From a virus, in IMG/VR virus record IMGVR_UViG_3300046794_000311, positions 1-64,000 of that record: DNA of 64,000 nt; one strand, written 5' to 3'. The position numbers were made by a program, and so were the translations under genes. Below, piece after piece: positions 3,001 through 48,707 of the stretch. The notes beneath the pieces were generated by a model, which searched no databases, was not told the origin of the DNA, and saw nothing but the letters and a program-made list of their open reading frames with translations. How positions within the stretch are numbered: the stretch's first letter is position 1; every line of letters starts with the position of its first letter.

Positions 3001-4390
3001 TCCAGGCGGTGCTGTTCTGCGTGAACTGGGGGTCCAGGAGGATGTTCGACGTATCGCCGATGACCATCTTGTCCGTCGTGATGGACCGGGCCCCGATCAC
3101 GGATGCGCTGATGATGCCGGTGGTTATCGAGCCGCCGTTGATCGTCGTTGTGGTCGGTATGGTGCCGTTGTTCAACTGGTTGGCCGGGATGCTGACGCCC
3201 GCGCCGATGGAGCCGGTGACCGTGGTCGCTGAGGACGCCGAACCTGCCGTCGTTGCGGAACCCGCCGTCGTTGCGGAACCGGCCGTGGCCGCAGAGGAGA
3301 CCTGACCGGAGACGTTCCCGCCGGAGACGACGAGGTTGGTGGCGTCGATCTGGGAGGCGGTGAGCTTGCCCACCGTGATCTTGGAGGCGTCGATGGACGC
3401 GATGACTCCGGACTCTGCGGTGATCGTCCCGGCCGCCATCTGGTTGGCGGTGACCGAGTTCGCGGCGATGTCGGCGGTACCGGCCTGATGGGCCGTTCCG
3501 GAGTTCGAGCCGGACGGGGCGGAGGCGATGGCGACCTTGGAGTACGCGACGAGCCGGTAGACGTAGGCGCTGGCGTAGTTCTGCACGGAGTCGTACAGGA
3601 AGTCCGGGCCGGGCAGGGTGCCCACGACGACCGGGTTGGGGAAGTTCACGTCGGTGTCGCGCTGCACCTGCACGTGGGAGAAGATCGCGGGCATGGGGTT
3701 GCCCTGGTAGTCCAGACCGTTCCAGGTGACGCGCAGGCCACCGAGCACGCCGACGACCCCCGGCGCGGAGGGCACCGGAGGCGGGGTGGACGCAGACGCC
3801 GTGGTGAGGTCGGCGGTCGCCCACAGGGAGGCGTTGTTGCTGGTGTCGACGGCCGCGACCCTCACGTAGAAGGCCGCGCCGGTATTAAGCCCGTCGAGGA
3901 GGACCAAGTCCTCCGTGGTGACGAAGCCGCCGCTCCAGTTGCTGTTGTCGTAGGAGGTCTGGAGCAGGTAGTGGGAGAGGTCGGTGAGGGTGGTCCCGTC
4001 CTGGTTCTCCGTCGGCGGGGTCCAGCTCGCCGTCACGCGGGCCTGCGTGGCGCCCTCGTCGGAGACGTACTGCACCGTGGTCAGGGTGAGCGCGGTCGGT
4101 TCCTTGGGCGGCAGGGAGTCCAGCTCGCTGCCGGAGGAGACCTGGTCCTGGACGGCCTTGATGCCGAGCGGGGAGTAGACCGGCTTGGTTATGTCCCCGC
4201 CGGAGAACTGCACCCATACCGTCTGCCCGATCGGCGGGATCGTGTTGGTCGGGGAAGCAGGGACGGACCAGGCGCTCTCGGCGTTTCCGAGAACCTGGGG
4301 AATGAGCAGCGTGACGCGGGCCTCATTCAGCGGGTCCTGGTTATTGGCCACGCTCGCCCGGTACATTCCCAGCACCGGATCAGCCGACAT
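20..4390 (-). CDS. Baseplate spike (gp5/VgrG OB-fold) fused to a long tail fibre/receptor-binding protein with FN3-like and carbohydrate-binding-like modules
   Basis: N-terminus YRASVANNQDPLNEARVTLLIP...PPIGQTVWVQFSGGDITKPVY matches the gp5/Phage_base_V OB-fold. It is followed by FN3-like segments (SWTPP..YLLQTS..FYVRVAAVD), ITAxKI repeats, and NILLDPQF/NLVTNPGFE CBM-like starts. Lies directly downstream of the hub gene. Confidence 0.8.
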   Translation of the reverse strand: MSADPVLGMYRASVANNQDPLNEARVTLLIPQVLGNAESAWSVPASPTNTIPPIGQTVWVQFSGGDITKPVYSPLGIKAVQDQVSSGSELDSLPPKEPTALTLTTVQYVSDEGATQARVTASWTPPTENQDGTTLTDLSHYLLQTSYDNSNWSGGFVTTEDLVLLDGLNTGAAFYVRVAAVDTSNNASLWATADLTTASASTPPPVPSAPGVVGVLGGLRVTWNGLDYQGNPMPAIFSHVQVQRDTDVNFPNPVVVGTLPGPDFLYDSVQNYASAYVYRLVAYSKVAIASAPSGSNSGTAHQAGTADIAANSVTANQMAAGTITAESGVIASIDASKITVGKLTASQIDATNLVVSGGNVSGQVSSAATAGSATTAGSATTAGSASSATTVTGSIGAGVSIPANQLNNGTIPTTTTINGGSITTGIISASVIGARSITTDKMVIGDTSNILLDPQFTQNSTAWNWSGNVVRTAASDASVPTGAPASWVAKLINQTSVNTDLTWKHTNTTTTGMAVTPGEAYYVEAWVVASSDCNANLRFFLTTWDAAGNNISWPSVPNVAPSAAQTWTKISGQITIPTGKYLATFGVGALQTTPTTAAGSWFVTNVKMRKAVDNALVVDGSLTASKITAGTLTVDKLSAGLQGTVGQKFYDFGADASKWSNGSTGTMTTVSVTDAASGGSVMRCVGYIQGAYRPDLLIPFDPGVTYRVTCRVRQTVANAVTGTNQNVYVGVTGIGADGVTLVNISGSNSRASQAYCATRATYINTGSGWQIFTGYIKGTAATGDAGPNTSPTNPMRLHQNVKYLSPCLYANYNGGTGTLEMDMFTIEVVETGQVNSANINLGNVNAAHLSLGAVSGNLVTNPGFEDTSMTGWTSSSIDANNVSKIEIGSGVAPARSGQGKASLGALNTGWAKIVSDPFPVVAASTYMFRYWYYGQGGIQVTFETSPDKVTWTDQMGGVNNYAVNNTSGYSEDIFEMTAPTGALWGRVSFTNNSPATNGLNTTTTYWLCIDDVLVMREGYGATDISAAGIRLFGPDGTLGTELTTSNAYATFAGGKASVDPNGVGTFNSLWTPQRPSGAASDDPTGQIWYQGQELGQLLWNMPWGMVTYERGWTNKPTASTYYTTDTGLIELAFTAVEGRMYRIVARSQFDFNGGTGTQVLENRVAVAATATTVNGCTIWSPTGASPRTTDPTMARCFGMYYDGAGTDGTTVVEGLIVCSSDAGGLYSSTTALAPGDHRILWIGTQHAGNATGWGLRNYSPAQSSDFYVEDIGPALPENGVYNTGGAAVTATKTYTKTYNAIWSRRYGNAGYTDGTVYQGYYSSTWGTQKSMVYFGTQPYTDMGSTAKVSKVEVYLYNNHWYYNGGGTAHIGAFTGTTEPTSFGGSGVNLTVSSWPVGAGKWVTLPSSWNSTWNAATPYRGITLGADLGSSTDKTYYGYFAGVGDSHPPQLRITYTK
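3222..3293 (-). repeat. Tandem 18-bp coding repeats (AGSATT-like, about 4 copies) in the fibre gene
   Basis: Protein SSAATAGSATTAGSATTAGSASSATT. The DNA gccgtcgttgcggaacc occurs twice in tandem. Confidence 0.7.
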
Positions 4391-5528
4391 TGATGTCCTC
4401 CAGAAGACTCGATTCCCAGAACTGCTTGTTCCTCAAGACAGCCGGGACGGTATCGAATTTGAATCGCTTGTTAGCATCGCTCCGGAATGTTACCGCGTAG
4501 GGCTGGTCCCTTTCCGCATCGACGGTCGTGGTGAACACCCACCCGGAATTGCTCTTGTCCCGGTTGATGATGTGCTTGGTTCCGGTCACCATCCACCGGC
4601 CGGTACGGTCCGAAGAAAGGGAACGCCCGGTGATAGCGACAAGCGTCCCCGGGGTAACCTTTGCCGTTCCGTACAGCGTGGCCTGCATGGTGAGCCAGCC
4701 ACGCGAGGCGAGCGTGCGGGCTTCCATAAGCGCCTGCGCGTCCGCGTAGTTGTCGACGGCCCGAGCGGTCGTTATGGAATTGAGGAATGCAGACGTCCCG
4801 GTATTCGACGCGGACGAAGCCTTGATCACCCGGCCGGTTTTCGCGTCCAGGCCGGAGATGCTGCTGGTGCCCGTTGTGCCGTTCTGGCGGGGAACCATGG
4901 TGCCCGCGAGGATCGACAACTCCCGGATGGTGTCCATAACCCCGGGCTGCTGGTTCTTGGAGAACACCGGGATGTTCTGGGCCTTCTGTCCCAGAAGGAG
5001 GACGCGCGGGTCGAGGAAGTAGAGCGTCGTCCCTTCCACCCAAAACCGGAAGCCGACTTCGTGCGCCAGGTCCTGGAGGAGTTTGAAGTCGCTCTGCCCG
5101 CTCTGCGCCCAGTAGGTGAGCCTCCGGGAGGACGGGGAGATGACGGTACGCAGCCCGTTCTGGCGGCCTACCTGGCGGACGATGGAGGTGGGGCTGACGT
5201 TCTTCCATGACCGGGTCCGCTGGATGTTCAGCGGCAGGCTGGTGCCGATGCACACGTAACGCGCGGTCACCGTCTTGGAACTGTTGCTGGCCAGGACGCT
5301 GGAGTGGTGCACGTAGCCGTACCAGCGGACGATGTCGTTGGGACTGCGGCCGTAGTCGAGCACGACAGGGGCCAGCTCGGGGTAGGCCGAGCTGGCGGCG
5401 CTGGTCGTCACGTCCACGATCGCCATGGAGTGCGTGCCGTAGCCCTCGCGGACCTCGACGCGCTTGATGTAGTTGGTTACCCGGTGGCCGGAGATGGTCA
5501 GGCCGGTGACAGGTGTCGGCTCAGGCAT
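4380..5528 (-). CDS. Baseplate hub protein (gp27/late control D-like)
   Basis: QSGQSDFKLLQDLAHEVGFRFWVEGTTLYF motif is typical of gpD/VgrG-N hubs. Lies between the LysM/tail X gene and the spike. Confidence 0.75.
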   Translation of the reverse strand: MPEPTPVTGLTISGHRVTNYIKRVEVREGYGTHSMAIVDVTTSAASSAYPELAPVVLDYGRSPNDIVRWYGYVHHSSVLASNSSKTVTARYVCIGTSLPLNIQRTRSWKNVSPTSIVRQVGRQNGLRTVISPSSRRLTYWAQSGQSDFKLLQDLAHEVGFRFWVEGTTLYFLDPRVLLLGQKAQNIPVFSKNQQPGVMDTIRELSILAGTMVPRQNGTTGTSSISGLDAKTGRVIKASSASNTGTSAFLNSITTARAVDNYADAQALMEARTLASRGWLTMQATLYGTAKVTPGTLVAITGRSLSSDRTGRWMVTGTKHIINRDKSNSGWVFTTTVDAERDQPYAVTFRSDANKRFKFDTVPAVLRNKQFWESSLLEDINVG

Positions 5529-5793: not shown

Positions 5794-6548
5794 CGTCCAC
5801 CCTTTCCGTTTGCCCCTTTAGCGAAGTCGTCCGGGGTCATTCCTGCGGGGAGCCTTCCGAAGGACACGAATTCCCCGCCGCCCTTCGGCTTCGGAAGCAA
5901 CTGCATGGTGATGGACACCTGACAGCGGGACGGGATCATCTGCTGGTTCCAGTGGGTGTACTGGATTTCGAGATCCTGGATGACCCCGTAGTAGTTCAGG
6001 GTGTCGCCGACGACGAGGTAGACCGGGACGTACAGCATGGGACCGGCCGCGTCGAAACTGAACTGCCCCTTTCGGAACGACTTCGAGGAGTCGCCCGTGG
6101 CGTCTGCACCCTCGCCGGTTACGTCTACGGATGCGGAGATACCAGTGATCTTGTAGAGCATGGAAATGTCCCAACCCACGCCGAGAGCAGGTACGAATAT
6201 GTTCTCGGCGCCGGACACCCGGGAGGAGTCCCACATCTCGTAGGTCCGGTCGAAAAGCAGGTTGAACTGGACCGTCTGCTGCAACGGCATAAGGAAGTCC
6301 TTTGCCGTCACGTCGTTCGGGTTGAGCGCATTGTCGTCCGCCTGGACCGCTGAATTCACGGAGTGCGAGACATTCAGGACGCTCGGGTTGTACAGGAAAT
6401 TGCACCGGTAGCGCACGCCGTCTACCGGCTTCTCCTGAATGATGAAGCCCCGGCTCAACTTCTTACCCCCGCCAACGAGTGACTGAAGGCCGGGGAGTTT
6501 CGTTATGCGGGGGTCGAAAGAGCCATTGTCCTGGATCCGCGTAGCCAT
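5790..6548 (-). CDS. Tail tube initiator/baseplate-associated protein
   Basis: FLYNPS...FNLLFDRT...GVIQDLEIQYTHWNQQMIPSRCQVSITM resembles contractile-system tube initiators. Follows the tape measure gene. Confidence 0.65.
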   Translation of the reverse strand: MATRIQDNGSFDPRITKLPGLQSLVGGGKKLSRGFIIQEKPVDGVRYRCNFLYNPSVLNVSHSVNSAVQADDNALNPNDVTAKDFLMPLQQTVQFNLLFDRTYEMWDSSRVSGAENIFVPALGVGWDISMLYKITGISASVDVTGEGADATGDSSKSFRKGQFSFDAAGPMLYVPVYLVVGDTLNYYGVIQDLEIQYTHWNQQMIPSRCQVSITMQLLPKPKGGGEFVSFGRLPAGMTPDDFAKGANGKGGR

Positions 6549-9500
6549 TAGTTTCCTGCCGCGATGAGGTTGATTCGGTTGTCCTCGGCGATGGCCTGTA
6601 TGAACTGCTGGGCAGCATCCCGGGCCGCGCGCTGGTCCATGACGCCCTGCACCTGCACGGTGATCGCACCGGAGTGGAAGTTCAGGGTGGGCGTGGCGCC
6701 CTTGGTATTAAGCCCGCCGACGGAGGACATGGCGTTGTTCCCGGCCAGGACCTTGCGCATGGCGTCTGCCTGGTAGGCCGGGATGATCATCTCGCCTGCG
6801 TGGACGCGTGCCGTCTGGTCTACGTCGATGTTCGTCGAGCCGACCGCGTAGCCCTTGTACTTGCCGCCGTTGGCCATGGACTTGATGCCCGGCGCGTTGG
6901 CCAGCGTGTGGTATCGCGACTCCTCGTAGCGCACGCCCGCGATGATGTTGTCGACGGGGTTCCAGATGTCCTTGTGGCCCTTGATCGAGTACGCGTTGAA
7001 CGTCGAGTCGATCGTCTGCATGATGCCCTTGGACGGGTGACCCGCCCTGGCGTTTGAGTCGGTGCGGTTGATCGCGTGAGGGTTACCCGACGACTCGTGC
7101 TGGATCATCGTGTTGACGATGGACTCGTTCTGCTTGGTGTCCTGGTGCAGGATCCCGAGCGCCGTCTTGATCCACTTCTTGACGTTGCCGGACGGCATGT
7201 TGGTCGGGACCGCGTCGTTGGAGACGTCGTCCTTCGAGTCCTTGCTGCCCGCGTCGGAGCCGATACCCGCGCCGGTCGAGGTGATGCCGGACGCGATGGC
7301 GTCCGCCTCCTCGATCGAGCCGTACGAGCCGACGTCACCGCCGAAGCCCATGGTGGACAGGCGGTTGGAGTCCGAACCGGCCGTCTCCTCGGTGTCGCTG
7401 GACGGGTCTCCGAGGTTGCCGACGGAACCGAGGACCCGCACAGCGTTGGTGAACTCGCTCGGCCGGAAGGACCGGACGCGGACCACGGCTCCCGTGTGCG
7501 GCGCCTCAATGATCTTGCCGCCGCCGATGCACATCACGACGTGGTGTGCCGGGTTGCCGTTGAAGAGCAGGTCTCCCGCGCGCACGTCACTGAGGTTGAC
7601 CTTCTTGCCCGCCCGCTGCTGCTGCGCGGCCGTACGGGGCAGGGACACCCCGATCTGCCGGAACGAATACTGGATCAGGCCGGAGCAGTCGAAGCCCTTC
7701 GGAGTGCTGCCACCCCAGACGTACTTCACGCCCAGGTACCTCATGGCGACCTTGATAACGGCAGCAGCAGTCTTGCCCGCGCCCTGCGTACCTGTGGCCT
7801 TCGCGCCGGACGTCTTGCTACCCGTGGCGGAAGCCGCACCGCCCGAGCCACCAGCACCACCGAAGAAGTTGCTGACGATGCCCGTGCCCGCGCCGATCAC
7901 ACCACCGACCGCTGCACCGATACCGGTACCGATGACCGGGACGACGGAGCCGATGGCCGCACCCGTCAGGGCGCCCGCTCCGGCGTCGACAGCGACGTGG
8001 CCCCACTTGTTGCCAGTCGAGCCCTTCTTGCTGACGTGGTCGACGACCTTCGAGCCGAAGTGGTGTGTGAGGTAGGCGCCGATACCGAAACCGCCAGCAG
8101 CGCCCAGAGCGGCCCCAGACAGGTCCAGGGCACCTCCCAGAGCACCGAAGCCCGCAGCCTCTCCCGTACCGCCACCCAGGGCCGCCCGAGCAGCACCGAG
8201 CAGACCACCGCCTCCGCTTCCGCCCATACCGGCCAGGCGTCCCACCGAGGCGAGACCGCGCATGGTGCCGTAGGCGCCGATGCCGGAGCCGATGCTGGAG
8301 CCCAGCAGGGAGCCAGCACCGCCGGTGAATCCCAGGACGGAGTCCGCGCCGGTCGACTTGAGGACGCCCTGGAGCGCGGTGGAGAACATGTCCAGGTACT
8401 TCGTCGCGGTCTGGAGACCGGACGTGAAGGCATCGTTGGTGTTGACTTCCTGGTTCCGCAGGGTGCCCGCGCGGGTCATCAGGGTGTTGGCGGTCGACCC
8501 GCCGATGCCCATCTTTCCGAGCGCGCTCTGGGCGGAGTTCTTCTTCTCCTGCGTGGATCCGCTGTCGCGCTGGTTGGCGAGGCTGACGTACGTCTGCGCA
8601 GAACCACCGTGGATCTGCGCGAGCATCATGCCCTTGAGTTCACCCTTGACCAGTTGCAGGGTGTTCTGGTCCAGGCCCCAGGAGTTCAGCGACTGGTTCA
8701 GGCCGGAGCCCGGGTCGTCGAGGGTTGCCGACAACTGCGCGTTCGTCTTGACCCGCTTGAGTTCCGGGAACCGCTGGTAGATCTGCTGGGCGATCTGTCG
8801 AGGGCTCTGCTTCGTGCCGTTCTTGATCGTCTGGATGCCCATGCCGCGCAGCGTGTTGTACGTCGTAGCGCTCCACGCTGCGGCCGTACCCTGCGCACGC
8901 TGCGCCTCGGACATGCCCGGGTTCAGGTATCCCGAGGTGCCCTTGACGTAGTTCCAGTTCGTGTTGAAGTTCGCAGAGCCGGGCGACAGGCCCATCTGCG
9001 ACATCGTGGCGTAGGCCGACGCCGCGTCCTGGGTGGACTGGGCGGTGAAGTTGTTCTTGAAGGCCGCGTCACGCAGCGTGTGCCAGGACTGGGACGAGTA
9101 CTGCGCCGCCTGGTAGGCGGTCGTCTGCATGTCGACCTGGTCGGGCAACTGCTTCTGGCCCCACGCGACGACGCCCTGGAGACCGCTCTTGAGGGTGTAG
9201 CGGCTCTTCTGGCCGCCGTTGTTTCCCGAGCCACCACCCAGACGGGGGGTGTTCGTGCCACCGGAGCCACCAGAACCGCCGGAGCCACCGTTGTTGGACG
9301 CACCGCCACCCTGCGAGCCGTTGTTGGAGAAGCGGACGGCGCCCCCGTTACCGACAGAGCCGACGTTACGGGCGTAGTTGCTGGTGCCGTTCCATACGTC
9401 TCCCAGCGCCATGCCCACGCCCCGGGAACGGGACATCTGCCCGACTCCGGTGTTTACGCCCTTGAGACCCTTGTTCAGGTCGTTGATGGTACGCGTCAGG

Positions 9501-9571
9501 GCAGAGATCGCGTCCTGGGCCTTATTCCACCCCAGGAGCGTTCCCTGCCCCGCCACAGTGCTCTCAGCCAT
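6548..9571 (-). CDS. Tape measure protein with NlpC/P60 endopeptidase and SLT lytic transglycosylase domains
   Basis: Gly/Ala-rich helical body. YVWGGSTPKGFDCSGL...HHVVM is NlpC/P60. IQHESSGNPHAINRTDSNA..GHPSKGIMQTI is SLT. The ATG at 9571 overlaps the upstream stop. Confidence 0.85.
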   Translation of the reverse strand: MAESTVAGQGTLLGWNKAQDAISALTRTINDLNKGLKGVNTGVGQMSRSRGVGMALGDVWNGTSNYARNVGSVGNGGAVRFSNNGSQGGGASNNGGSGGSGGSGGTNTPRLGGGSGNNGGQKSRYTLKSGLQGVVAWGQKQLPDQVDMQTTAYQAAQYSSQSWHTLRDAAFKNNFTAQSTQDAASAYATMSQMGLSPGSANFNTNWNYVKGTSGYLNPGMSEAQRAQGTAAAWSATTYNTLRGMGIQTIKNGTKQSPRQIAQQIYQRFPELKRVKTNAQLSATLDDPGSGLNQSLNSWGLDQNTLQLVKGELKGMMLAQIHGGSAQTYVSLANQRDSGSTQEKKNSAQSALGKMGIGGSTANTLMTRAGTLRNQEVNTNDAFTSGLQTATKYLDMFSTALQGVLKSTGADSVLGFTGGAGSLLGSSIGSGIGAYGTMRGLASVGRLAGMGGSGGGGLLGAARAALGGGTGEAAGFGALGGALDLSGAALGAAGGFGIGAYLTHHFGSKVVDHVSKKGSTGNKWGHVAVDAGAGALTGAAIGSVVPVIGTGIGAAVGGVIGAGTGIVSNFFGGAGGSGGAASATGSKTSGAKATGTQGAGKTAAAVIKVAMRYLGVKYVWGGSTPKGFDCSGLIQYSFRQIGVSLPRTAAQQQRAGKKVNLSDVRAGDLLFNGNPAHHVVMCIGGGKIIEAPHTGAVVRVRSFRPSEFTNAVRVLGSVGNLGDPSSDTEETAGSDSNRLSTMGFGGDVGSYGSIEEADAIASGITSTGAGIGSDAGSKDSKDDVSNDAVPTNMPSGNVKKWIKTALGILHQDTKQNESIVNTMIQHESSGNPHAINRTDSNARAGHPSKGIMQTIDSTFNAYSIKGHKDIWNPVDNIIAGVRYEESRYHTLANAPGIKSMANGGKYKGYAVGSTNIDVDQTARVHAGEMIIPAYQADAMRKVLAGNNAMSSVGGLNTKGATPTLNFHSGAITVQVQGVMDQRAARDAAQQFIQAIAEDNRINLIAAGN

Positions 9572-9740
9572 TCTCTGCCTCAGCAATTCGCCTATGTCGC
9601 TGCGCCCTGAACCACTTCACCCAGTGAAGACGCTCGCGCACGGTCAACCGGCGAATCTCGCTGAGGCTCCACGCCGGACTTAGTTCGACTAGTTGCTCGT
9701 ATTCGAAGTACGTGTCGTGGTAGTTACAGGCCCTGAAACA
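9564..9740 (-). CDS. Tail assembly chaperone C-terminal extension (probable frameshift product)
   Basis: Open frame +1 relative to the end of 9724..10587, with no usable start codon of its own. WSLSEIRRLTVRER resembles gpGT-like extensions. Ends at the tape measure start. Confidence 0.6.
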   Translation of the reverse strand, partial: CFRACNYHDTYFEYEQLVELSPAWSLSEIRRLTVRERLHWVKWFRAQRHRRIAEAENG

Positions 9741-10587
9741 GATCCCCCGCCGAAATGAAGAGGGGGACCTCCTTTCCGCACGAATCGTGCGTGAACTTGA
9801 CCTCATTGTACTGAGGACCGGGCTGCTTGTTCTCAATCGCATCGAGGATGCGCTTCCGGTCCACGATGCCTAGAGAGCGGGCGAACTCGGGATTTCCGGT
9901 GACGGCATTCTCGCTGCCGTCGGCCTCGACCACGGAAATGAGGCAGCGGGAAAGCAGGAGGGTGTTCTGCTCGGAGTCGGTGGTTCGGTCGACGACGGCG
10001 AGGATTGCGTCCTGGTCGTTGCCTACGGGAAGCCGGACGAATGCCTTACGGCCCTTTCGCAGTTCGACTTCGAAGATGCGCTGGGACGGGTCCTCCAGGC
10101 GCCGGACGGGGATCTCGTCGAGCGTGACGGACAGGCGGAACTCCTCGCCGCAGTGCATGCAGGAGAACCGCTCCCAGACGATCTCGTCGCCGTAGGTCGC
10201 GCGCCGGATCTCCATCAGGAGCATGTCGCGGTCGCCGAGCAGGAGGTTGGACAGAAGGACGGGGCTGGTCTTCTCGCCTCCCACGGAAACAGTTCCGGAG
10301 GCGAGCAGGGTGGAGATGAACTTGCCGACACCGCCCTGGCGGGCCTTGGTGATGGCCTCTTCGTCCGCGCCGGTAAGTTCCCGCACCTCGGCGTCGAAAC
10401 GGGTGCTAGGGAAGTCGTTGCCCAAGACATAGCCTCCCGGCAGGCGGAAATTACCACCTGCCGGGAAAGCGATCTCGGGCTTTGCGACCTCGCCCCCCTG
10501 GTTGAGCACTGCCGCGATGGCGGCGTTCGCTGCACCGGGGTTCGCAAGGGGGCTGGAGTACCCCTCGGTATTAAGGTCGTTAGCCAC
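9724..10587 (-). CDS. Tail assembly chaperone / baseplate-hub assembly protein
   Basis: VRELTGADEE, GDRDMLLMEIRRATYG and a CxxC motif. Lies between the tube and tape measure genes. Confidence 0.65.
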   Translation of the reverse strand: MANDLNTEGYSSPLANPGAANAAIAAVLNQGGEVAKPEIAFPAGGNFRLPGGYVLGNDFPSTRFDAEVRELTGADEEAITKARQGGVGKFISTLLASGTVSVGGEKTSPVLLSNLLLGDRDMLLMEIRRATYGDEIVWERFSCMHCGEEFRLSVTLDEIPVRRLEDPSQRIFEVELRKGRKAFVRLPVGNDQDAILAVVDRTTDSEQNTLLLSRCLISVVEADGSENAVTGNPEFARSLGIVDRKRILDAIENKQPGPQYNEVKFTHDSCGKEVPLFISAGDLFQGL

Positions 10588-18002: not shown

Positions 18003-18015
18003 GAGCGACGAACTC

Positions 18016-34408: not shown

Positions 34409-34419
34409 TCCAGACAAGC

Positions 34420-34458
34420 CAGAAGCCCCCGGCTCCTCGTGGGAGTCGGGGGCTTCTG
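34420..34458. terminator. Bidirectional terminator
   Basis: CAGAAGCCCCCGGCTCC...GGAGTCGGGGGCTTCTG inverted repeat. Confidence 0.7.
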
Positions 34459-34464
34459 CATGTC

Positions 34465-36177: not shown

Positions 36178-36205
36178 GGGGTTCTCCAGGATCGTGGTGG
36201 TCGGC

Positions 36206-39771: not shown

Positions 39772-39783
39772 GATGCACTCCGC

Positions 39784-39929
39784 ACGCCTGCGAAATTAGG
39801 TGACGGGCTCGGGATAAGTGCTGTTCCCTACCACAAATGGTTCTGCGGATTCGCCCCAGTACTGCGTTTCGGTCTCCCGCCCCTGTTCAGGGTTGATTGC
39901 AGTTTTTGTCCAGGAACAGGGCTCGGCGT
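39784..39929 (-). ncRNA. c-di-AMP (ydaO/yuaA) riboswitch, actinobacterial type
   Basis: Ordered consensus blocks CGCCGAGCCCTG...GGGAGACC...GGGGCGAATC...GTAGGG...CCCGAGCCCGTCACCTAA...AGGCG, immediately 5' of a cell-wall hydrolase. Confidence 0.85.
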
Positions 39930-41863: not shown

Positions 41864-42280
41864 GTCCCTTGTAAACCCCTCCAGCAACGCGCCCCCCGCG
41901 ATGGCTGTGGGGCGCGTGAAGACACATGGCCCTGGCCAAATCCCAACCCTGGGCGCTGAGTTTCGTGCTTCGCGGTAGGCAAAGACCTCGGGGATCAGCA
42001 TGTGGAGAAACGGTGGATGGCCAGTGCATGGAACCTAACATCCAGTGATCGGAGAGCACACCCCCCGGGCAAGTTACGCAACTCAGTTTCTTTACCCTCC
42101 CATGACCGTACGGGCAGGTTGCGTTTACTTAAACCCTCAACAGATGCCGGACCACTGCGCAGCAATCCGCGCAAAGTAGACACCTAAACAATCTGTTGCT
42201 GTGAGGCACGTCACACAGTCAATTCTGGGCATTCGGCCAGGTTGTAGATCATTATCGTCAAGCATCGGCCGGACACAACT

Positions 42281-42313
42281 TGACCCCATCACGGATTTAC
42301 CGTAATGGGGTCA
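42281..42313. terminator. Hairpin downstream of the Pnk gene
   Basis: TGACCCCATCACGG-ATTTA-CCGTAATGGGGTCA. Confidence 0.55.
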
Positions 42314-42352
42314 GGCGCCAGGCTATGTCAAGTCATTTGCCTCAGAGGCAAC

Positions 42353-43276
42353 TCAGAAGTTTCCGGGCGCCACCTGAAGGACTCGCAAGCCGAGATTGCG
42401 CCACATGTCGACCACCTGGTTGCGGTCGTCGAGGACCAGCCAGACGTTGTACCGGCCCAGGATCTCCTGCCGGTAGATCTCCTCCTTCACGATCGAGTCC
42501 TTGCGCATGTCGTACTCGGATCGCATCAGCAGCGGCGACAGGGAGGTCCAGTCCCCCACGTGCTGCACCAGCCAGGCCCGGGTCTTCTTGTAGGCCCTCG
42601 CGTCGCGGCCGGAGACGAAGATGATCTCGGCGCCAGCGTCCCGCAGCGTGTTCACCAGGTCGACGACGTCCTGGTGTGCCTCGTCCTCGTCCACGCGGTC
42701 CCAGTCGAAGGGACTGCGGTCGGCCATCTTGGCCAGCGTTCCGTCCAGGTCCACCAGAACGGCGTGAGGGCGGCCCTGGATGTACTCCGGCGGGTCGGCG
42801 GGCTTCGGGGCCAGGTACTTCTCGTACATGTCCCTGATGACCTTCTCGCCGACGCTCTTCTCCCGCTTCAGGTCGCGGCGGACGCAGGTATTAAGCGGGA
42901 CGTCGGTGAAGTCCTTGACGAAGAACCGGGCACCTTCCTCCTCCGCGATCTTCGCCAGCCGCTCCTCGTGGAACGGGTTGAGGTTGGTGTCGGCGACGAT
43001 CACGGAGACGCCCTGGAGCAGGAACGTCTTCACCAGCGCGTCGCGGGCCTTGACGACCTGGCGCTCGTGCTTGCCGTGGAAGCGGTCGGCGTGCAGCATC
43101 GCCCGCAGGTCGTCCTTGCACACGACGACGGCGCCGCCCGGGACAGCCTTGAGCACCTGCTCCCGGGCCCACGTCGTCTTGCCCGAGCCCGGCAGGCCCT
43201 TGGTCATGGTCAGCGTCGTCACGGGCTTCTCCTTGGTCTTCTTCGGTCCGCAGCACTGGCACTTCAGCAGGCTCAT
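42353..43276 (-). CDS. Polynucleotide 5'-kinase/3'-phosphatase (T4 PseT-like)
   Basis: GLPGSGKTT P-loop, ADTNL, HAD motifs DLDGTLA, SGR and LDDR. Confidence 0.95.
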   Translation of the reverse strand: MSLLKCQCCGPKKTKEKPVTTLTMTKGLPGSGKTTWAREQVLKAVPGGAVVVCKDDLRAMLHADRFHGKHERQVVKARDALVKTFLLQGVSVIVADTNLNPFHEERLAKIAEEEGARFFVKDFTDVPLNTCVRRDLKREKSVGEKVIRDMYEKYLAPKPADPPEYIQGRPHAVLVDLDGTLAKMADRSPFDWDRVDEDEAHQDVVDLVNTLRDAGAEIIFVSGRDARAYKKTRAWLVQHVGDWTSLSPLLMRSEYDMRKDSIVKEEIYRQEILGRYNVWLVLDDRNQVVDMWRNLGLRVLQVAPGNF

Positions 43277-43572
43277 CGACAGCACCCGTCGCAGCCGTGC
43301 AGGCCCTCGTAGGGGTGGTAGTCCACGCCCTGCATCAGCCGCTTGTAGTCGAGGTCGTCCGGGTCGGGGTGACCGACACCGTGGGGGCACATCCGCTCCA
43401 TCAGCGCGCGGTCCATACGGAAGTGCTGGGGCCAGTCGGCCATGTGGTGATCGGAGGGGTTGTGTACGCAGCAGTGGCGGCCGATGCAGTCCTTGCGGGG
43501 GTGGGCGAGGAGTCGTTCCCCGCCCACCAGTTCCGCCGCCTCGAACCAGCCGCCGAGGTCGTCGGGCTCCAT
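43273..43572 (-). CDS. Cys/His-rich metal-binding hypothetical protein
   Basis: HPRKDCIGRHCCVHNPSDHHM...CPHGVGHPDPD...HGCDGCC. Translationally coupled to the ligase and Pnk genes. Confidence 0.7.
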   Translation of the reverse strand: MEPDDLGGWFEAAELVGGERLLAHPRKDCIGRHCCVHNPSDHHMADWPQHFRMDRALMERMCPHGVGHPDPDDLDYKRLMQGVDYHPYEGLHGCDGCCR

Positions 43573-44675
43573 CAGGCCGCGTCCTCCGAGAGCGTCTGGA
43601 ACGGCTTCTCGTACGTCGGCCGGACCCGCTTCCAGACGTCGGCCGTGATGTCCTTGCCGTCGTAGAGACGGAACAGGACGCCCGGGTACGGAGTCTCCTG
43701 GGCCAGCAGCGCGAACTCCTTGCGCCGCTTCTTCACGTCCACCTCGGGCCGACGCAGACGGCGCGTGATCCAGTCGAAGTCGTCCTGGATGCCGTCGTAG
43801 GCCCGCTTGTAGTCGCCCTCCAGCCGGTGCACCTGCTGATGAACCCACGTGTAGAACTCGTCCGGCACGCGGTCGATCCAGGAGTCGATGCCCTGCCCGT
43901 TGGCCAGCGCGTCCCACACGGAGAGGGTGGAGACGTTCGTCAGGATCCGGTGCAGGCGGATGTACTCGTCGTACTTGAACTTCACCCGGCGGTCGCTCCA
44001 GGGGAAGCGGACGACGAAGCCCTCGTGGTTCTTCTCCTGAATCCGCATCGCTTCGAGGACGTCGACCATCGTCTGGAAGGAGAGCGGGCGGGTCACCGGG
44101 CCCTGCCAGTCGTAGGAAGCGGACGGCAGCGTCTTGCCGGTCGTGGTGTCGATGACCGCGAGCAGGACCAGGTCGTCCCGCCCCTTGTAGTCGACGACGA
44201 TCCGGTTCTCCGGGTAGATGATCTCGAAGAGATAGGTCAGGCCCAGAATCGGCTCGAAGGTCGGGTACCGCTCGTGCAGGACCTTCGTGGCGTGCTGGGC
44301 CTGGGGGCTGGTGAAGGAGCCACGCGACGCTATCGCGTGCTCCCCGGTATTAAGCCCGTACAGGATGCCCAGGGAGCCGTCCCACTTGATGTACCCCTCG
44401 ACCGGCTGCTGGAGCAGCGTCGAGTGCAGGTGCGGGACCTGCTCCCAGTTGAAGAACTTCCTGAACGGCCGGGAGACGACCTCCCCGGTGTGGCTGTTGA
44501 CGATCAGTCCTCGCGTCTGCTCGGTGACGTCGTTCCACAGACCGTCGAACTGGGTCTTGTTCGTGTAGTTGTAGATGGTCAGCGGCTCGGTGGGGTGGTT
44601 CTGCTTGCGGACGTAGCCCTGGTCGAGCATGTCCTGGAGCAGGCTCGCCGACATGATGCTGAGCAGGTTCGTCAA
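43572..44675 (-). CDS. RNA ligase (T4 Rnl1 family)
   Basis: IYNYT, RGLIV..RPFRKFFNW, motif I KWDGSLG, FEIIYPENRIVV, EGFVV and RVKFK motifs. Confidence 0.93.
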   Translation of the reverse strand: MTNLLSIMSASLLQDMLDQGYVRKQNHPTEPLTIYNYTNKTQFDGLWNDVTEQTRGLIVNSHTGEVVSRPFRKFFNWEQVPHLHSTLLQQPVEGYIKWDGSLGILYGLNTGEHAIASRGSFTSPQAQHATKVLHERYPTFEPILGLTYLFEIIYPENRIVVDYKGRDDLVLLAVIDTTTGKTLPSASYDWQGPVTRPLSFQTMVDVLEAMRIQEKNHEGFVVRFPWSDRRVKFKYDEYIRLHRILTNVSTLSVWDALANGQGIDSWIDRVPDEFYTWVHQQVHRLEGDYKRAYDGIQDDFDWITRRLRRPEVDVKKRRKEFALLAQETPYPGVLFRLYDGKDITADVWKRVRPTYEKPFQTLSEDAA

Positions 44676-44698
44676 GGTGTCCTCCGGGGTGTGGTGGG

Positions 44699-44926
44699 TC
44701 AGAGACGCTGGTCGAGGGCCGCGACGACGCGCTTGGCGAAGGTCTCGTAGAACTCCTCGGGCAGGTGGTCGATGGCGAACCACTTCTTGGCCTCAAGGAC
44801 GACGATGTCGACGGCCTCCTGGCGCTTCTCTCCCTGGCGCCGCAGCCAGTCCTGGGCGGCACTCTCGTGGGGGATGGCCAGGTGGCCGAGGTTCATGAGG
44901 GGGCGGTCATCCTGCTTCGCGGTCAT
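44699..44926 (-). CDS. Hypothetical protein
   Basis: ORF within the operon. Confidence 0.55.
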   Translation of the reverse strand: MTAKQDDRPLMNLGHLAIPHESAAQDWLRRQGEKRQEAVDIVVLEAKKWFAIDHLPEEFYETFAKRVVAALDQRL

Positions 44927-44928
44927 GT

Positions 44929-45333
44929 TCAGCCCTTCTTCGCGGCCTTCTTGGCCTTCTTCGCCTTCTTGGCGGCCTTCTTGTCACGCTTGTCGAGGTC
45001 GGTCTCGACGTCGCTCAGCGCCTCGTCGAGCTTCTGGACGAAGAGGAGGACGGCACCCTTGAGGCGGTCCGCCTTCGCGCGAGCGTTCTCCAGGTCCTTG
45101 CGGAGCTGTTCGCGGTCCTGCTCGGTGGTCGTCCCGCCGTAGACACCGAAGTCGAGCGTCACGCTGCGGGTGCAGTCCTGGATCTGGAGGGTGGCCCCGA
45201 AGTCCAGGTAGCTGTCGCTGTCGTCTCCGTCGGTGATCTCCGCGAGCACCGCGCCGAGGCCGTGGTGGCCCTGGTTGTTCAGGAACTCGCGGATGTAGAG
45301 GCGGCGCTGCTCGTCGGTGATGGCGGTGCTCAT
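44929..45333 (-). CDS. Hypothetical protein with Lys/Ala-rich tail
   Basis: GAGGAG RBS and a KKAAKKAKK histone-like tail. Confidence 0.65.
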   Translation of the reverse strand: MSTAITDEQRRLYIREFLNNQGHHGLGAVLAEITDGDDSDSYLDFGATLQIQDCTRSVTLDFGVYGGTTTEQDREQLRKDLENARAKADRLKGAVLLFVQKLDEALSDVETDLDKRDKKAAKKAKKAKKAAKKG

Positions 45334-45384
45334 GCGGTGCTCCTCGGCTCTGCGGCGGTTCTTCGGGTTACCCCGACAGAGAGA

Positions 45385-45422
45385 AACCTATAACGAAGAA
45401 GCCGTAATCTCAAGCCCGTAAT
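45385..45422 (-). promoter_or_regulatory. Promoter of the RNA-repair operon with two operator half-sites
   Basis: TTGAGA-17-TAGGTT. GAAGCCGTAAT at 45398 and AAGCCCGTAAT at 45412. Confidence 0.6.
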
Positions 45423-45637
45423 CGTGAATCTGTTCAAGGGAACCCGTATGGCGTGGGTCACACTTTCGAGTGGTTGCGCGGACATGCAAAAGACCCCCGC
45501 CGTAGCAGGGGCCTTCGCAGGTCAGGTCAGTGTCCGGACGCCACCAGGAGGGCGTGTCCGACGTAGATGGCCGCAGCCGCGTCCAGCGTCAGAGCCGCGA
45601 TCCAGACGGCGTCAGGAACGTCTCGAAGCCACTTCAC

Positions 45638-46291
45638 TCAGATCTTCCTTACGTAGTTGATGAAGTCCTGGAGCCGGTCCGTACGCGGCTGCGCCGGGAG
45701 GATGCCGACCCGGTCGTTGAAGACGTCGAACGCCTTCCAGAACTCCTTCTCGATCTGGTCGGCCGACATGTCGTCGAACGCCCAGTAGAACTCCGGGTCT
45801 GGCACGCGGACGGTGAGCGTGCCGTACTCCAGCAGTTGCTGGCCCTGCCGCAGCAGCCGGAAGCAGTGCCGGGCGTGCTTGGCCACCCGCTTCTGCCTGC
45901 CGTCGTTGGCCAGCTCCTGCTTGATCCGCTTGATCTGCCCCATGGCGTAGCCGCCGTACGCGGAGCGCACATAGGGCTCAGAGAGGAAGTCCTCGCGGAT
46001 GTCGACCAGCCACTCCCCCTCCCAGGACTGCTCCTCGTACTCCTCCAGGTACATCAGGTCCATGATCGTCGGGTTGCACTTCAGCGCGAGGCCCACGTAC
46101 TTGCCGACCTCGTGCAGGGAGACGTCCGGGTCCTTCGTGACCAGCGAGTCCTGATGCCTGGCCCCAATGCGGAAGAACTCCGGAGTCGGACGGATGAAGA
46201 TGCCCAGCCGGTCGATGTCCGAGCCGGGCCGAGCAAGGCCGAAGGCAGTGCTGCCCACGACCCCGCTCAGCAGAATGTTCGGCGTCCCCAT
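45638..46291 (-). CDS. Pol-beta-superfamily nucleotidyltransferase (YcgL/Nuc-transf-like)
   Basis: VVGSTAFGLARPGSDIDRLG (GS...DxD), KCNPT, YGGYA and KHARHCFRLL motifs. Confidence 0.88.
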   Translation of the reverse strand: MGTPNILLSGVVGSTAFGLARPGSDIDRLGIFIRPTPEFFRIGARHQDSLVTKDPDVSLHEVGKYVGLALKCNPTIMDLMYLEEYEEQSWEGEWLVDIREDFLSEPYVRSAYGGYAMGQIKRIKQELANDGRQKRVAKHARHCFRLLRQGQQLLEYGTLTVRVPDPEFYWAFDDMSADQIEKEFWKAFDVFNDRVGILPAQPRTDRLQDFINYVRKI

Positions 46292-46746
46292 CAGAACCAG
46301 TACGCCTCGGACGGGTCGTCAGCGCGGCCGTCCTCCTCGTAGCGCTCGGCGGCCTCCTCGTACGTCTCCAGGGCCTCCTCCACGGCCCGGCCCCACGACA
46401 TACCCGCGTCCTGCTCGGACTGCACGATCTCCAGCAGCGCCCGCGTCTCGTTGTCCGCCTTGATGAACTTGGTGTCCACCAGCGTCCCCGCCGACGCGTA
46501 GACGTTCTTGTCCTGGGCGGACATGGCGTCGAAGGTGATGCCCTTGTACGACAGCACCTGGCCGACGATGCACGACGGCGCCTTCGTCTCGGGGTCGAAG
46601 TACGCACACAGCGCCGACCCGCCGATGGTGAGCATCGTGTACGTGTAGTCGGCGCCCCGCTCCTCGACCGCACGGGCCAGGAGGGTCTTCGCCTCGTCCA
46701 GGGTGATCTCTACGGCCGCCGGGGCGACCGAGGTATTAAGCGTCAT
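46291..46746 (-). CDS. Hypothetical protein
   Basis: CAYF..PSCIVGQVL...Q..QD motif recurring in actinophage proteins. Confidence 0.65.
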   Translation of the reverse strand: MTLNTSVAPAAVEITLDEAKTLLARAVEERGADYTYTMLTIGGSALCAYFDPETKAPSCIVGQVLSYKGITFDAMSAQDKNVYASAGTLVDTKFIKADNETRALLEIVQSEQDAGMSWGRAVEEALETYEEAAERYEEDGRADDPSEAYWF

Positions 46747-46873
46747 GGTGGTGCCTTTCAGGAGCAGTCGAACTCGGGGTCGGTGTCGGCGGTCTCGGTG
46801 GTGAAGTCGTTGATCTCGTCGATGATGATCAGGTCCGTGTCGATTCCCATGTACTCCAGCAGGGACTGAAGGC

Positions 46874-47110
46874 TCACAGGCCCAGCACCTCCTTCAGGCG
46901 CTTGCCGAACTCGTTGACGGTCTCTTCGCGCAGCCGGTCTTCGTGCATGTTGTAGTCCTCCTCGTCGTCTCCCTTGCGCTCCAGGAGGACGACGTCGCCG
47001 ATGGAGATGGTGCAGGTGAACTCGCGGTAGCCGGACCATCCGGCGCTCTTCCAGGACTCCGTCGTGACGACCTGGATCAGCGGTAGGGGTATCTCGATGG
47101 AGTCGGACAC
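46874..47110 (-). CDS. Hypothetical protein
   Basis: GGAGG-GTG start. Confidence 0.55.
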   Translation of the reverse strand: MSDSIEIPLPLIQVVTTESWKSAGWSGYREFTCTISIGDVVLLERKGDDEEDYNMHEDRLREETVNEFGKRLKEVLGL

Positions 47111-47160
47111 AGGTCCTCCAGGGTGGGGGCGGGGCCCGGCGAACCGAGCCCCGCGAGCTG

Positions 47161-47847
47161 TCACAGAGACGAAGGGTCGAACAGGTTGCGGCCGTCGGGG
47201 TCCTTCGAGACAGGGGTGAGCTTGCCCCGGTCGACCCACGTGCTGATCGTGCTCGGCTTCACCTCAAGCAGCTCGGCCAACTGCTTGGCGGTGACCAGGG
47301 TGACCTCACCGCTGTCTCGCCGCTGTCTCAGCACCCCGGCGAGCCGGTGGAAGGTGAGTGCGGCCAGGTGCGTACCCAGCGCGATACAGATGGTCGGAGC
47401 GGCCGAGGCCAGGATCACGTGCCCCCACGTCGTCTTCGCGGACTGCCCCGTCACATGCGCGTACGCAGATCCGTGGGCGACGTTGAGAACGAGTGAGACA
47501 GCGGTGAGACCGACCACCGTGCCGATTGCCCACCGGTATCCCGGGGAGCCGACCAACGCCAGCGAGGCGACCACGCCCAGACCGTCCAGCCCGTCGATGA
47601 CCAGGGGGTAGAACTCCCGGACCTCGTGCAGGCCGATGCCGTCTGCGGTGTCTCGAAGGGGCACCCAGCTCACCCGCATACCGACCAGCGCCACGAACGC
47701 CAGCGCCACCAGGATCATGGTGAACCCGATGACCAGACCGGTCGCGTGCAGGCCGTTAAGCGGCTGAGACGGGGGTGAGACAGGGTCTGTCTCAGTCTTG
47801 CTCGCGCGGTTCTCGCGCCAGCTCTGGATAGGCTTGGGGAGTCCCAT
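47161..47847 (-). CDS. DUF2637/SpdA-like membrane protein with C-terminal HTH
   Basis: Four TM helices with YPLVIDG and SLVLNVAH motifs. C-terminal TAKQLAELLEVKPSTISTWVDRGKL HTH. Confidence 0.75.
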   Translation of the reverse strand: MGLPKPIQSWRENRASKTETDPVSPPSQPLNGLHATGLVIGFTMILVALAFVALVGMRVSWVPLRDTADGIGLHEVREFYPLVIDGLDGLGVVASLALVGSPGYRWAIGTVVGLTAVSLVLNVAHGSAYAHVTGQSAKTTWGHVILASAAPTICIALGTHLAALTFHRLAGVLRQRRDSGEVTLVTAKQLAELLEVKPSTISTWVDRGKLTPVSKDPDGRNLFDPSSL

Positions 47848-48018
47848 GGAGAGACGACACCTCTCGTGGTGGGACAGGTGCCCGGTAGGTTCGCCGCCTG
47901 CCGGGCACCCGAATACCCGGGTTAGGTATTAAGCCGAACCACTTCCGTCTCCTCTCTGTCTCAGGCCGGGACAGCTCCCGGTATCGGTTGATCACTCTTC
48001 TCTCGAAGTCGTTCAGGC

Positions 48019-48381
48019 TCAGCGGCCGACCACCTCCGCTCGTACTGCGTTGCCCGAGGACGGGTGGATCACGAGACTGCTGCTCGCGTGGATCTCCAGC
48101 CGCCTGTCCTCCTCCAGCCGCACCAGGAAGTACGACCAGAACCTCTCGCCGTCCCGCTTCCACCGGAACTCGATCGTCGGGTTGCCGTGCAGGTGCCGAC
48201 GGTTCGCGCTGTACGGGTCGATGACCACAGCGGCGTCCTCCGGGCCCTCGTTCAGCAACTCGCGGGCCGTGGCCAGCTCCTGCTCCAGGCGCGCGATCTT
48301 CTCGTCCTTCGCGCGGACGCGGTCCTTGACCCACTTCGGCAGGCGCTCGAACCTCGGGTCCTCCGTCATCGGTGTGTTCAC
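48019..48381 (-). CDS. Hypothetical protein
   Basis: RLPKW coiled-coil N-terminus and GTGA coupling. Confidence 0.6.
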   Translation of the reverse strand: MNTPMTEDPRFERLPKWVKDRVRAKDEKIARLEQELATARELLNEGPEDAAVVIDPYSANRRHLHGNPTIEFRWKRDGERFWSYFLVRLEEDRRLEIHASSSLVIHPSSGNAVRAEVVGR

Positions 48382-48707
48382 CAGGTACCGCCCTTCTTGG
48401 CCTTCTCCCAGGCCGCCTTGGACACGCACACGTGCCCGGTCTTCTTGCCGTCCCGAAGGTCGAGGCGCCAGCACTCCGGGTCCGTCTGCGAGACGGGGAT
48501 GTACATCGAGATCGTCGAGTAGCAGACCCGCGACGAACCCGATCCCGAGCACTGCGTGGTGTAGACCGGCTGCATGTACGTGTAGGTGTCCTCGGGCACG
48601 TACCGCTTGGCGGTGATCGTGCCGTGGTCGAGGTCCGACCCACAGCCGGTGAGGACGAGCGCCCCCGCGAGCGCGGCAGAAGCCGCGTAGGTATTAAGAC
48701 GCTTCAC
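48378..48707 (-). CDS. Lipoprotein
   Basis: Signal peptide with lipobox LTGC. Confidence 0.75.
   Translation of the reverse strand: MKRLNTYAASAALAGALVLTGCGSDLDHGTITAKRYVPEDTYTYMQPVYTTQCSGSGSSRVCYSTISMYIPVSQTDPECWRLDLRDGKKTGHVCVSKAAWEKAKKGGTW

Follow-up and report, generated by a model that had tools for sequence, protein, structure and literature searches.

A nine-letter word on the sense strand of temperate Streptomyces phages, its two types and its candidate readers

What does a short word do that a phage repeats, letter by letter and in one direction, throughout its genes? The question is raised by IMG/VR virus record IMGVR_UViG_3300046794_000311 (G000 below), 85,747 bp in length, whose positions 1-64,000 are referred to as the window. 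G000 genes lie nearly all on the minus strand, and 15 copies of the word CTTAATACC are found in the window, 27 in the whole record. Coordinates and strands given for the 15 copies by the original prediction are all exact: 14 appear on the plus strand as GGTATTAAG, and a single one, at 25014, as CTTAATACC. Past the window, 12 further copies follow at 65965-84656, all in one orientation, which brings the total to 26:1.

The word is genuine and is strongly selected at the level of nucleic acid. In 100 dinucleotide shuffles of the window, 0.05 copies are expected and the maximum is 1. No other 9-mer of the genome comes near CTTAATACC in over-representation, which amounts to about 313 times its zero-order expectation. 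The codon-preserving shuffle proposed in the original prediction leaves the excess in place: 24 copies are observed in called genes (24 of 27 lie inside genes according to a crude GC-frame caller) against about 0.46 expected (500 runs, mean total 3.46 including the 3 fixed copies outside called genes). One-mismatch copies had been seen at 3 and 20374; both are there, with two more at 27986 and 55990. The former of these two is the variant CTTCATACC, here called the C word, as opposed to the A word CTTAATACC. Altogether the window holds 19 matches with at most one mismatch, where 2.1 are expected, and only four of them are one-mismatch copies. Since these are so few, all nine letters matter. 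The flanks are nearly free, apart from a G at -1 (66-68% of sites) and a T or G at +1. GC content had been put at about 67%; the value measured for the whole record is 65.1%.

The copies of the window are listed below, together with the one of the other type (ORF, open reading frame; aa, amino acids).

3881-3889, minus: codon 168 of the 1456-aa fibre-like ORF 20-4390; the C variant is aligned with it in G001 and G002
6704-6712, minus: 52 codons before the end of the 1012-aa ORF 6548-9586
10567-10575, minus: codon 5 of ORF 9724-10587
12162-12170, minus: in the 514-aa ORF 11190-12734; present in the A-type lineage only, L-x-T in C-type phages
14841-14849, minus: final three codons of ORF 14838-15257; C-type phages have CTGAACGCC
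17988-17996, minus: codon 3 of ORF 17142-18002, upstream of the major capsid gene
25014-25022, plus: no other copy is on this strand; codon 9 of the conserved 52-aa ORF 24990-25148, which precedes the serine recombinase gene
34945-34953, minus: codon 8, counted from a TTG, of a MazG/PRA-PH-like ORF
35929-35937, minus: 8 codons before the end of ORF 35905-36303
37238-37246, minus: in the exonuclease-like ORF 36206-37444
42887-42895, minus: in the polynucleotide kinase-phosphatase gene 42353-43390
44346-44354, minus: in the T4 Rnl1-like RNA ligase ORF 43572-44783
46732-46740, minus: codon 3 of ORF 46291-46746
47925-47933, minus: end of a 6-codon mini-ORF in the leader (47848-47933) of a 228-aa gene
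48690-48698, minus: codon 4 of ORF 48378-48707, about 54 nt downstream of a palindrome at ~48722-48744
27986-27994, minus: "wrong-type" copy CTTCATACC in this A-type genome; aligns with cognate sites of C-type phages

As had been noticed, several copies crowd towards gene ends: those at 10567, 17988, 25014, 34945, 46732 and 48690 occupy codons 3-9 from a start, 14841 makes up the last codons of its gene and 35929 the 8th-from-last codon. The reading CTT-AAT-ACC (Leu-Asn-Thr, LNT), proposed for copies in genes, applies to all 27, in a frame without stops. Among LNT tripeptides in called G000 genes, 22 of 26 use exactly the codons of the word. The corresponding Leu-His-Thr (LHT) is motif-coded in 20 of 25 cases in G001 and in 24 of 30 in G002; relatives without the word have 3-5 LNT in all. 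LNT in ordinary codons does occur in the fibre ORF, as previously remarked, namely as CTCAACACG at 1388 and CTCAACACC at 1667.

We wondered how the word fares in related phages. Among 15 IMG/VR records, G000 included and several near-identical to one another, each has only CTTAATACC (A type) or only CTTCATACC (C type), single relics aside. Counts, given as word strand to other strand, are as follows.

A type: G000 26:1, G003 20:1, G006 24:0, G007 26:0, G012 37:1, G015 21:0
C type: G001 28:1 (one copy duplicated through a 127-bp terminal overlap), G002 34:1, G004 9:1, G008 16:0, G009 24:0, G010 31:0, G011 27:1, G013 8:0, G014 10:0

A search for a third variant gave none: all loci compared, 18 at the 228-aa gene and 20 motif-bearing ones (of 24) at the gene of a small HicA-like protein (see below), are of A or C type. 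Streptomyces phage BRock and G005 contain neither word, and no comparable word was detected in them or in L181 and L188-L191.

Comparison of the 27 G000 sites with G001 and/or G002 reveals a concerted exchange. Eighteen sites are aligned to CTTCATACC, and another two miss the C word by one letter; four correspond to ordinary L-N-x or L-x-T codons and three are unaligned. In G003, 20 of the 27 are CTTAATACC. At each of the 18 aligned sites the middle residue changes from Asn to His and the word keeps 8 of its 9 letters. Since every such change alters the residue, protein sequence yields to the nucleic-acid word, and the original claim of selection on nucleic acid rather than protein is borne out. 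Sites also turn over, by synonymous change of LNT or LHT (CTGAACACC to CTTAATACC, CTGCACACC to CTTCATACC) as well as from unrelated tripeptides through amino-acid changes. Two relics of the opposite type are known, the CTTCATACC at 27986 in G000 and one CTTAATACC in a C-type prophage. The former is likely a trace of recombination between A and C types; C-type orthologues of its ORF carry the cognate site.

Distribution in a host genome was examined in the lysogen Streptomyces sp. NPDC002088 (G016, 10.7 Mb). Its prophage of about 118 kb contains 38 copies (37:1). The remaining ~10.5 Mb contain 24, equally divided between strands (12:12), and no CTTAATACC; the word is thus about 140-fold denser inside the prophage than outside it. 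The word is private to the phages, tied to the sense strand and co-evolving with a factor that reads it, with a concerted switch between A and C.

The tie to the sense strand holds across records. In 11 of them, 278 of 285 copies lie on the main gene strand, and the seven minority copies lie sense in small ORFs of the opposite strand. In G000, G002, G003 and G012 this copy is near the N-terminus of an orthologous ORF that is conserved at protein level, with synonymous differences. In G001 the ORF is divergent and in the same place, in G004 it is homologous and has the word at its C-terminus, and in G011 it is a different small ORF. In G000 the 52-aa ORF holding 25014 is located upstream of the true start of the tyrosine integrase on the minus strand. 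The earlier observation that orientation follows transcription is therefore confirmed by 25014 and extended by the other minority copies. Since these copies are sense in differing small ORFs, the word tracks local direction of transcription and has been placed more than once.

Reading frame is almost as strict. According to the crude gene caller, 218 of the 285 copies are on the same strand in frame 0 and 5 on the same strand in another frame; for 7 the caller places a gene solely on the opposite strand, and 55 fall outside called genes, mostly in small ORFs and at gene edges. None of the three frames of the C word contains a stop, and still CTT|CAT|ACC is the reading in nearly every case. This frame rule is suggestive of a link with translation. 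On the other hand, proto-sites for frame 0 (Leu-x-Thr) outnumber F-x-P or S-Y several-fold, one frame is closed to the A word by TAA, and pre-existing alternative-frame peptides number 0-5 per genome, too few for a frame test to decide. Two local GC-position tests of strand and frame were too noisy and were not used.

Two stretches of G000 are free of the word. Its lack at 49-64 kb had been noted from the window, where no exact copy occurs between 48699 and 64000; in the record the gap extends from 48699 to 65964. A terminator-like hairpin and a promoter region, at ~65.6 kb, precede this early region, and 19 of its small ORFs, when scanned, gave no Pfam family above threshold. The other stretch, 17997-34944, has no cognate copy save the plus-strand one and comprises genes for terminase, portal, recombinases, XRE-DUF5753 and the operon of the HicA-like protein.

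Promoter-like intergenic regions carry a separate 23-bp palindrome of the form ATTACGGCTTC.GAAGCCGTAAT, at the following positions.

Window: ~22590, 30325, 37521, 40378, 45407, 48722-48744, 49884-49898, 55251, 62280
G000 past the window: 65599-65613, 83193

The ATTACGGCTTC half-site numbers 0-14 among records, independently of A or C type. The word itself does not sit as an operator at an early lytic promoter; the copies nearest to palindromes, 48690 and 83139, are about 54 nt downstream of them.

One copy is part of an RNA-like structure. It lies in the leader of a gene whose product has a helix-turn-helix (HTH) domain.

47848-47933, minus: structured leader, 5' of the 228-aa DUF2637/HTH gene
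47161-47847, minus: 228-aa membrane (DUF2637-like) protein with C-terminal HTH_17/MerR-like domain, behind the leader

In each of the 18 loci where the region is present (7 A-type, 11 C-type), a mini-ORF or the preceding ORF closes with the word, directly followed by the stop codon. The stop codon opens the loop of hairpin 1, in which AAUACC (47925-47930) pairs with GGUAUU (47912-47917). Generally, (A/C)AUACC is paired with GGUAU(U/G), the second arm being GGUAUU in A type and GGUAUG in C type, so that hairpin 1 is compensatory in 18 of 18 loci. Its loop is 5-8 nt long and varied in sequence. In loci L126 (A) and L128 (C) the loop is identical, and the difference between them is precisely the compensatory pair. 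A second strong hairpin (~47877-47910) also shows compensatory changes, and a GAGAGG resembling a ribosome-binding site is paired in the leader together with the AUG. The leader belongs to no known Rfam family. Variable spacing and a second arm of 6 of 9 letters suit an RNA hairpin better than a dyad bound by protein on duplex DNA, and the covariation points to the transcript as much as to DNA. The 228-aa HTH protein was itself considered as the reader and rejected, as its recognition helix has no type-specific residue.

The phages concerned form a temperate Streptomyces lineage, since close relatives of G000 comprise, along with IMG/VR records of which two (G005, G012) are classed as proviruses, the prophage of Streptomyces sp. 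NPDC002088. Megablast of 12 kb against INPHARED retrieved no near-identical phage. Nearest named relatives in protein search are BRock-kind Streptomyces myophages, with 61-65% terminase identity. Sequencing runs listed as holding the phage are 20 sets of DNA contigs from soil or rhizosphere metagenomes (Logan), with no RNA set among them. In 4 metagenome sets, among 40 of 713 variant places none is inside the five motif copies at 41000-49000, and one, 48699, is adjacent. No paper on this word in phages was found; the motif-string matches listed are unrelated to phages, and a literature search on Streptomyces phages, BRock and motifs gave the BRock announcement only. Landmark genes of the window are as follows.

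16108-17106, minus: major capsid
18016-19737, minus: portal
20940-22529, minus: terminase

A tyrosine integrase (minus) and a large serine recombinase (plus, 25273-27366) are placed back to back. Further functions in the window are polynucleotide kinase-phosphatase, T4 Rnl1-like RNA ligase, RlaP, a LysM-NlpC/P60 hydrolase and a MazG-like protein; past it are RNR, RecA, ThyX, dNMP kinase, endonuclease VII, a GH25 lysin and a DpdA/TGT-like protein. The last of these (512 aa, minus, 66234-67772 of G000, 2234-3772 of L113) matches phrog_887 at E 1.5e-79 and has no Pfam match. Its homologues occur in BRock and G005. No preQ0 synthesis genes were seen among proteins scanned. The end of G000 (85640-85700) is a long G run followed by C's, and the replication module of G001 and G002 (PolA, SNF2 helicase, primase, DnaB, loader) is missing; for these two reasons G000 is probably an incomplete assembly.

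Three neighbouring features deserve mention in their own right. The polynucleotide kinase-phosphatase, T4 Rnl1-like ligase and RlaP nucleotidyltransferase form an RNA repair set at 42353-46291, and two of the three genes have the word. An XRE-family HTH and DUF5753 regulator (33307-34215) is among the few plus-strand genes and has no word; in G002 a 65-aa ORF follows it. A c-di-AMP (ydaO) riboswitch aptamer at 39771-39911, minus (58.3 bits, gathering score 38), is directly 5' of the LysM-NlpC/P60 gene 39148-39771, nested between tRNA-Pro/Phe and tRNA-Leu/Asn. G001 shows the same layout (68.8 bits). At gathering thresholds these 4 tRNAs and the riboswitch are all that Rfam detects in the window.

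Which protein might read the word? Two small ORFs are candidates.

29974-30261, minus: HicA-like 95-aa ORF, candidate reader, in an operon a few genes from the recombinase module
35711-35908, minus: 65-aa ORF, second candidate reader, splits by type

Genes were ranked by how well they separate the two types, with the divergent A-type provirus G012 as reference. Among 102 genes the 95-97-aa ORF came first, its identity to G012 being 73-77% in A type versus 38-43% in C type. It was followed by a 151-aa ORF from the replication module, which word-less relatives have as well, by the 65-aa ORF and by a 67-aa acidic ORF; the acidic ORF is two genes downstream of the 95-aa ORF and segregates by type. 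In all 20 motif-bearing loci out of 24 IMG/VR loci tabulated, the HicA-like variant agrees with the type of the word: NHL with Arg in the last helix accompanies the A word, NHI or NHV with Gln (Lys in L179) the C word. The last codons of the 95-aa ORF (29977-29985) are the near-cognate CTTAATCTC, the full word in G012 and CTTCATATC in C-type phages. The copy in the NPDC002088 prophage (P0024), a long form, is 57-59% identical to A-type and C-type proteins alike; it has C-type residues in a C-type prophage. In Streptomyces sp. BK022 the HicA-like protein (P0016) resembles the A type and is identical to that of provirus G012.

Relationship of this protein to HicA is suggested by the profile of its family and by predicted structure. 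Pfam HicA_toxin (PF07927) is matched by 19 of 22 aligned family members (best E 5.9e-6); three relatives are named YcfA/HicA-like and two have precomputed PF07927. The predicted model of the 95-aa protein is alpha-beta-beta-beta-alpha with an inserted helix (mean pLDDT 65.9), and A-type copies have a 14-residue insert. The top Foldseek row is HicA chain 1whz (E 0.12, probability 0.80). VIA-align against HicA chains yields Z 3.8-4.6, with 6g26_F at Z 4.6 over 57 of 60 residues. T40, G41, G42, N43 and H44 are invariant in 9 copies of the clade, and T40, G42, N43 and H44 in the 22-member alignment; H44 may correspond to the catalytic His of HicA, which follows a Gly-rich turn. A PDB sequence search with the profile gave chance rows only (E at least 0.3), and NCBIfam did not match any of ten small ORFs. 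For the 65-aa ORF, ESM Atlas returned no useful match (scores 0.81). The HTH proteins that could be aligned, the 228-aa MerR-like protein and XRE-DUF5753, do not segregate with the variant.

The explanation that we rank first, and tentatively, is that the word is read on mRNA by the HicA-like protein of 29974-30261. CTTAATACC or CTTCATACC would be a cis-acting recognition word kept on the sense strand of middle and late units, and the specificity of the phage-encoded factor that reads it would have switched once or a few times between A and C types. A small HicA-like RNase or RNA-binding protein, with the fold of a double-stranded RNA-binding domain, would bind or cut every transcript with the cognate word. 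Genes of replication, repair, lysis and virion would in this way be held down, and the word-free early (48.7-65.9 kb) and lysogeny/HicA-like (18-34.9 kb) regions would be exempt. Such a system might represent an RNA-level counterpart of stoperator silencing, with type-specific "immunity". Three of its elements, namely that reading occurs on RNA, which protein reads and that the outcome is silencing, we infer from the data above.

Several observations weigh against this explanation. As to the outcome, stabilisation or processing of transcripts may equally well be the direction of effect. The window's own 95-aa copy, with its 14-residue insert, has no Pfam or NCBIfam match, and its fold matches are weak, with Z below 5 and tied with unrelated folds. 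In the neighbourhood of the gene no HicB-like partner was recognised, neither of the downstream ORFs 29560-29901 and 29360-29563 giving a match to a HicB model. We know of no HicA connected with a long specific word, nor, to our knowledge, is the family known for 9-nt specificity. HicA-like homologues occur in the word-less relatives G005 (37% identity), L181 and L188-L191, so the protein is insufficient for the system. The 65-aa ORF segregates almost as well and among IMG/VR records is found only in motif-bearing phages. Finally, type-segregating columns are present in many genes because A and C genomes are partly two clades, which means that the association is not independent evidence for each genome.

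A more far-reaching form of the mRNA explanation seems rather unlikely as a whole. More than 20 proteins would have been recoded with an exact 9-nt RNA address, recognised with single-base specificity by a miniature HicA-fold reader, for genome-wide post-transcriptional silencing or immunity interconvertible between A and C. Two residues of the reader would set the specificity, Leu versus Ile/Val after the invariant His and Arg/Lys versus Gln in the last helix. Polynucleotide kinase-phosphatase, RNA ligase and RlaP would reseal the cuts, making the switch reversible by repair.

Second in rank, and somewhat less probable than reading of mRNA by the HicA-like protein, is a roadblock of the stoperator kind. 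A monomeric phage repressor bound to the duplex 9-bp word would stop polymerase arriving from one side; lytic genes would be silenced in the lysogen, and A and C types would possibly be heteroimmune groups. These phages are temperate, as attested by both recombinases, two proviruses and the NPDC002088 prophage, and the asymmetric copies are many, dispersed and co-oriented with transcription. Stoperators are about 13-14 bp long with some degeneracy, which is at odds with a 9-bp word with free flanks. Moreover, no copy overlaps a promoter; promoters have the separate 23-bp palindrome, whose count does not depend on type. The aligned HTH proteins do not follow type either, and the second arm in the leader, with 6 of 9 letters and a spacing of 5 to 8, would be odd for a protein on duplex DNA. 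Stoperator motifs, like the word, differ between related genomes (PMC6550527), and repressor-stoperator systems are reported for R4-kind Streptomyces phages (PMC10276819). Reported stoperators are intergenic (PMC10276819), contrary to the copies in coding frames found here.

Can the frame rule be explained by translation? CUU-(A/C)AU-ACC might be read as a unit in ribosomal E, P and A sites, as a pause or as the target of a nuclease or factor, which we regard as improbable. The word consists of exactly three codons in frame even in C-type phages, whose other frames are free of stops, and in the leader all 18 loci have the stop codon directly after it. Both CUU and NAU, codons read by wobble, are used rarely here. 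The phages encode tRNA-Asn(GUU), and a tRNA(GUG) is present in 4 of 6 C-type records (G001, G002, G008, G010; in G001, L082 9573-9658) and in 0 of 5 A-type ones. This tRNA is class-II-shaped, 85-86 nt long, with a long variable arm and a 6-bp anticodon stem (52.9 bits with the Rfam tRNA model); it may be an adaptation to extra CAU codons, or a coincidence. The TGT/DpdA-like gene also fits. However, inheritance and availability of proto-sites may account for the frame, tRNA(GUG) is missing from the complete C-type record G011, and no stalling or recoding motif of this form was found in papers searched by two motif strings only.

An element for an elongation factor is about equally doubtful. Acting on non-template DNA or nascent RNA in the manner of ops/RfaH, nut/put or a pause, it would make polymerase resistant to termination on long middle and late operons. 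This would agree with the strict sense-strand orientation, with the copies at 48690 and 83139 downstream of palindrome-bearing promoters and with the lack of copies in short early units. Sites such as ops or nut occur once or twice per operon, near operon starts, whereas 27-38 copies per genome are present here, many of them deep inside genes or at their ends. Nor was a gene for a NusG/RfaH-like or Q-like protein or a phage RNA polymerase found among ~100 proteins scanned, many ORFs having no family.

Still less credit is given to a DNA mark. The G-rich complement GGTATTAAG would be modified by the DpdA/TGT-like protein, or the strand would be nicked specifically as in phages with localized single-strand breaks. 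The gene is there, the word is as exact as an enzyme recognition site and all its G residues are on the template strand. Nevertheless, DpdA homologues are found in the word-less BRock and G005, known DpdA motifs are 2-3 nt long, and no HUH or nickase gene was found in proteins scanned. A mark of genome polarity would not need co-evolving sense copies placed independently in opposite-strand ORFs.

A host-directed polar motif, Chi-like for protection or KOPS-like for guiding a translocase, would suit a short, asymmetric and strongly strand-biased word and can practically be dismissed, since outside the NPDC002088 prophage the word is sparse and unskewed, without the enrichment and skew expected of such motifs in a host chromosome, and sister phages use two variants of it. 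An antisense guide RNA was also considered and rejected: 7-mers of the complement occur on the sense strand once each, at 25014 itself, and flanks of this copy are not conserved in G001.

Should the word be a genome-wide control signal, the phage pays a visible price for it, more than 20 proteins exchanging Asn for His upon a one-letter change of the signal, and this would be rare, direct evidence of a cis code co-evolving with its reader. A very small HicA-like protein, or the 65-aa one, would then also gain a function, and a natural pair of orthogonal 9-nt specificities usable as tools in Streptomyces would be provided. The two variants and many sequenced relatives make the system testable, and two named lysogens are Streptomyces sp. 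NPDC002088 and Streptomyces sp. BK022.

How does the word compare with known systems? T4 RegB is a phage endoribonuclease that cuts the 4-nt GGAG in early Shine-Dalgarno regions. Reading of mRNA by the HicA-like protein would resemble it in being a phage-encoded, sequence-specific attack on one temporal class of the phage's own transcripts; it would differ in that the word has 9 nt and is located in coding sequence of non-early genes, and cleavage is here only proposed. To HicA of HicAB pairs the candidate reader would be linked by family profile (19 of 22 relatives) and predicted topology, with the differences that no HicB partner is recognised and that A-type copies bear the insert. With Chi and KOPS the word shares shortness, asymmetry and strand bias. 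Those words are enriched in host genomes and follow replication, whereas this one is far denser in the prophage and follows transcription. The ops/RfaH element, lambda nut and HK022 put are likewise confined to the sense strand, as non-template DNA or RNA, but the word is distinguished from them by copy number and by its many positions inside genes or at 3' ends.

The closest likeness in logic is to stoperators, with which the original prediction had compared the word. Stoperators of Cluster A mycobacteriophages (L5, Bxb1) and R4-like phages are tens of dispersed asymmetric sites, mostly in one orientation, with a sequence that tracks the cognate factor (PMC6550527, PMC10276819). Compared with L5, Bxb1 and R4 on this basis, the analogy stands as far as logic goes: in a temperate actinophage, sites are dispersed (27 in G000, 10-38 in ten relatives), asymmetric, co-oriented apart from the seven copies sense in opposite-strand ORFs, and variable between relatives. 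No cognate repressor was identified among alignable HTH proteins, many ORFs being without family, and the likeness does not extend to short intergenic sites, all 27 G000 copies being in open frames. If the word is indeed a genome-wide control signal, the stoperator principle would be extended to coding sequence and perhaps to RNA: here the word is nine exact letters inside codons, promoters use another palindrome, and one copy is built into an RNA-type hairpin.

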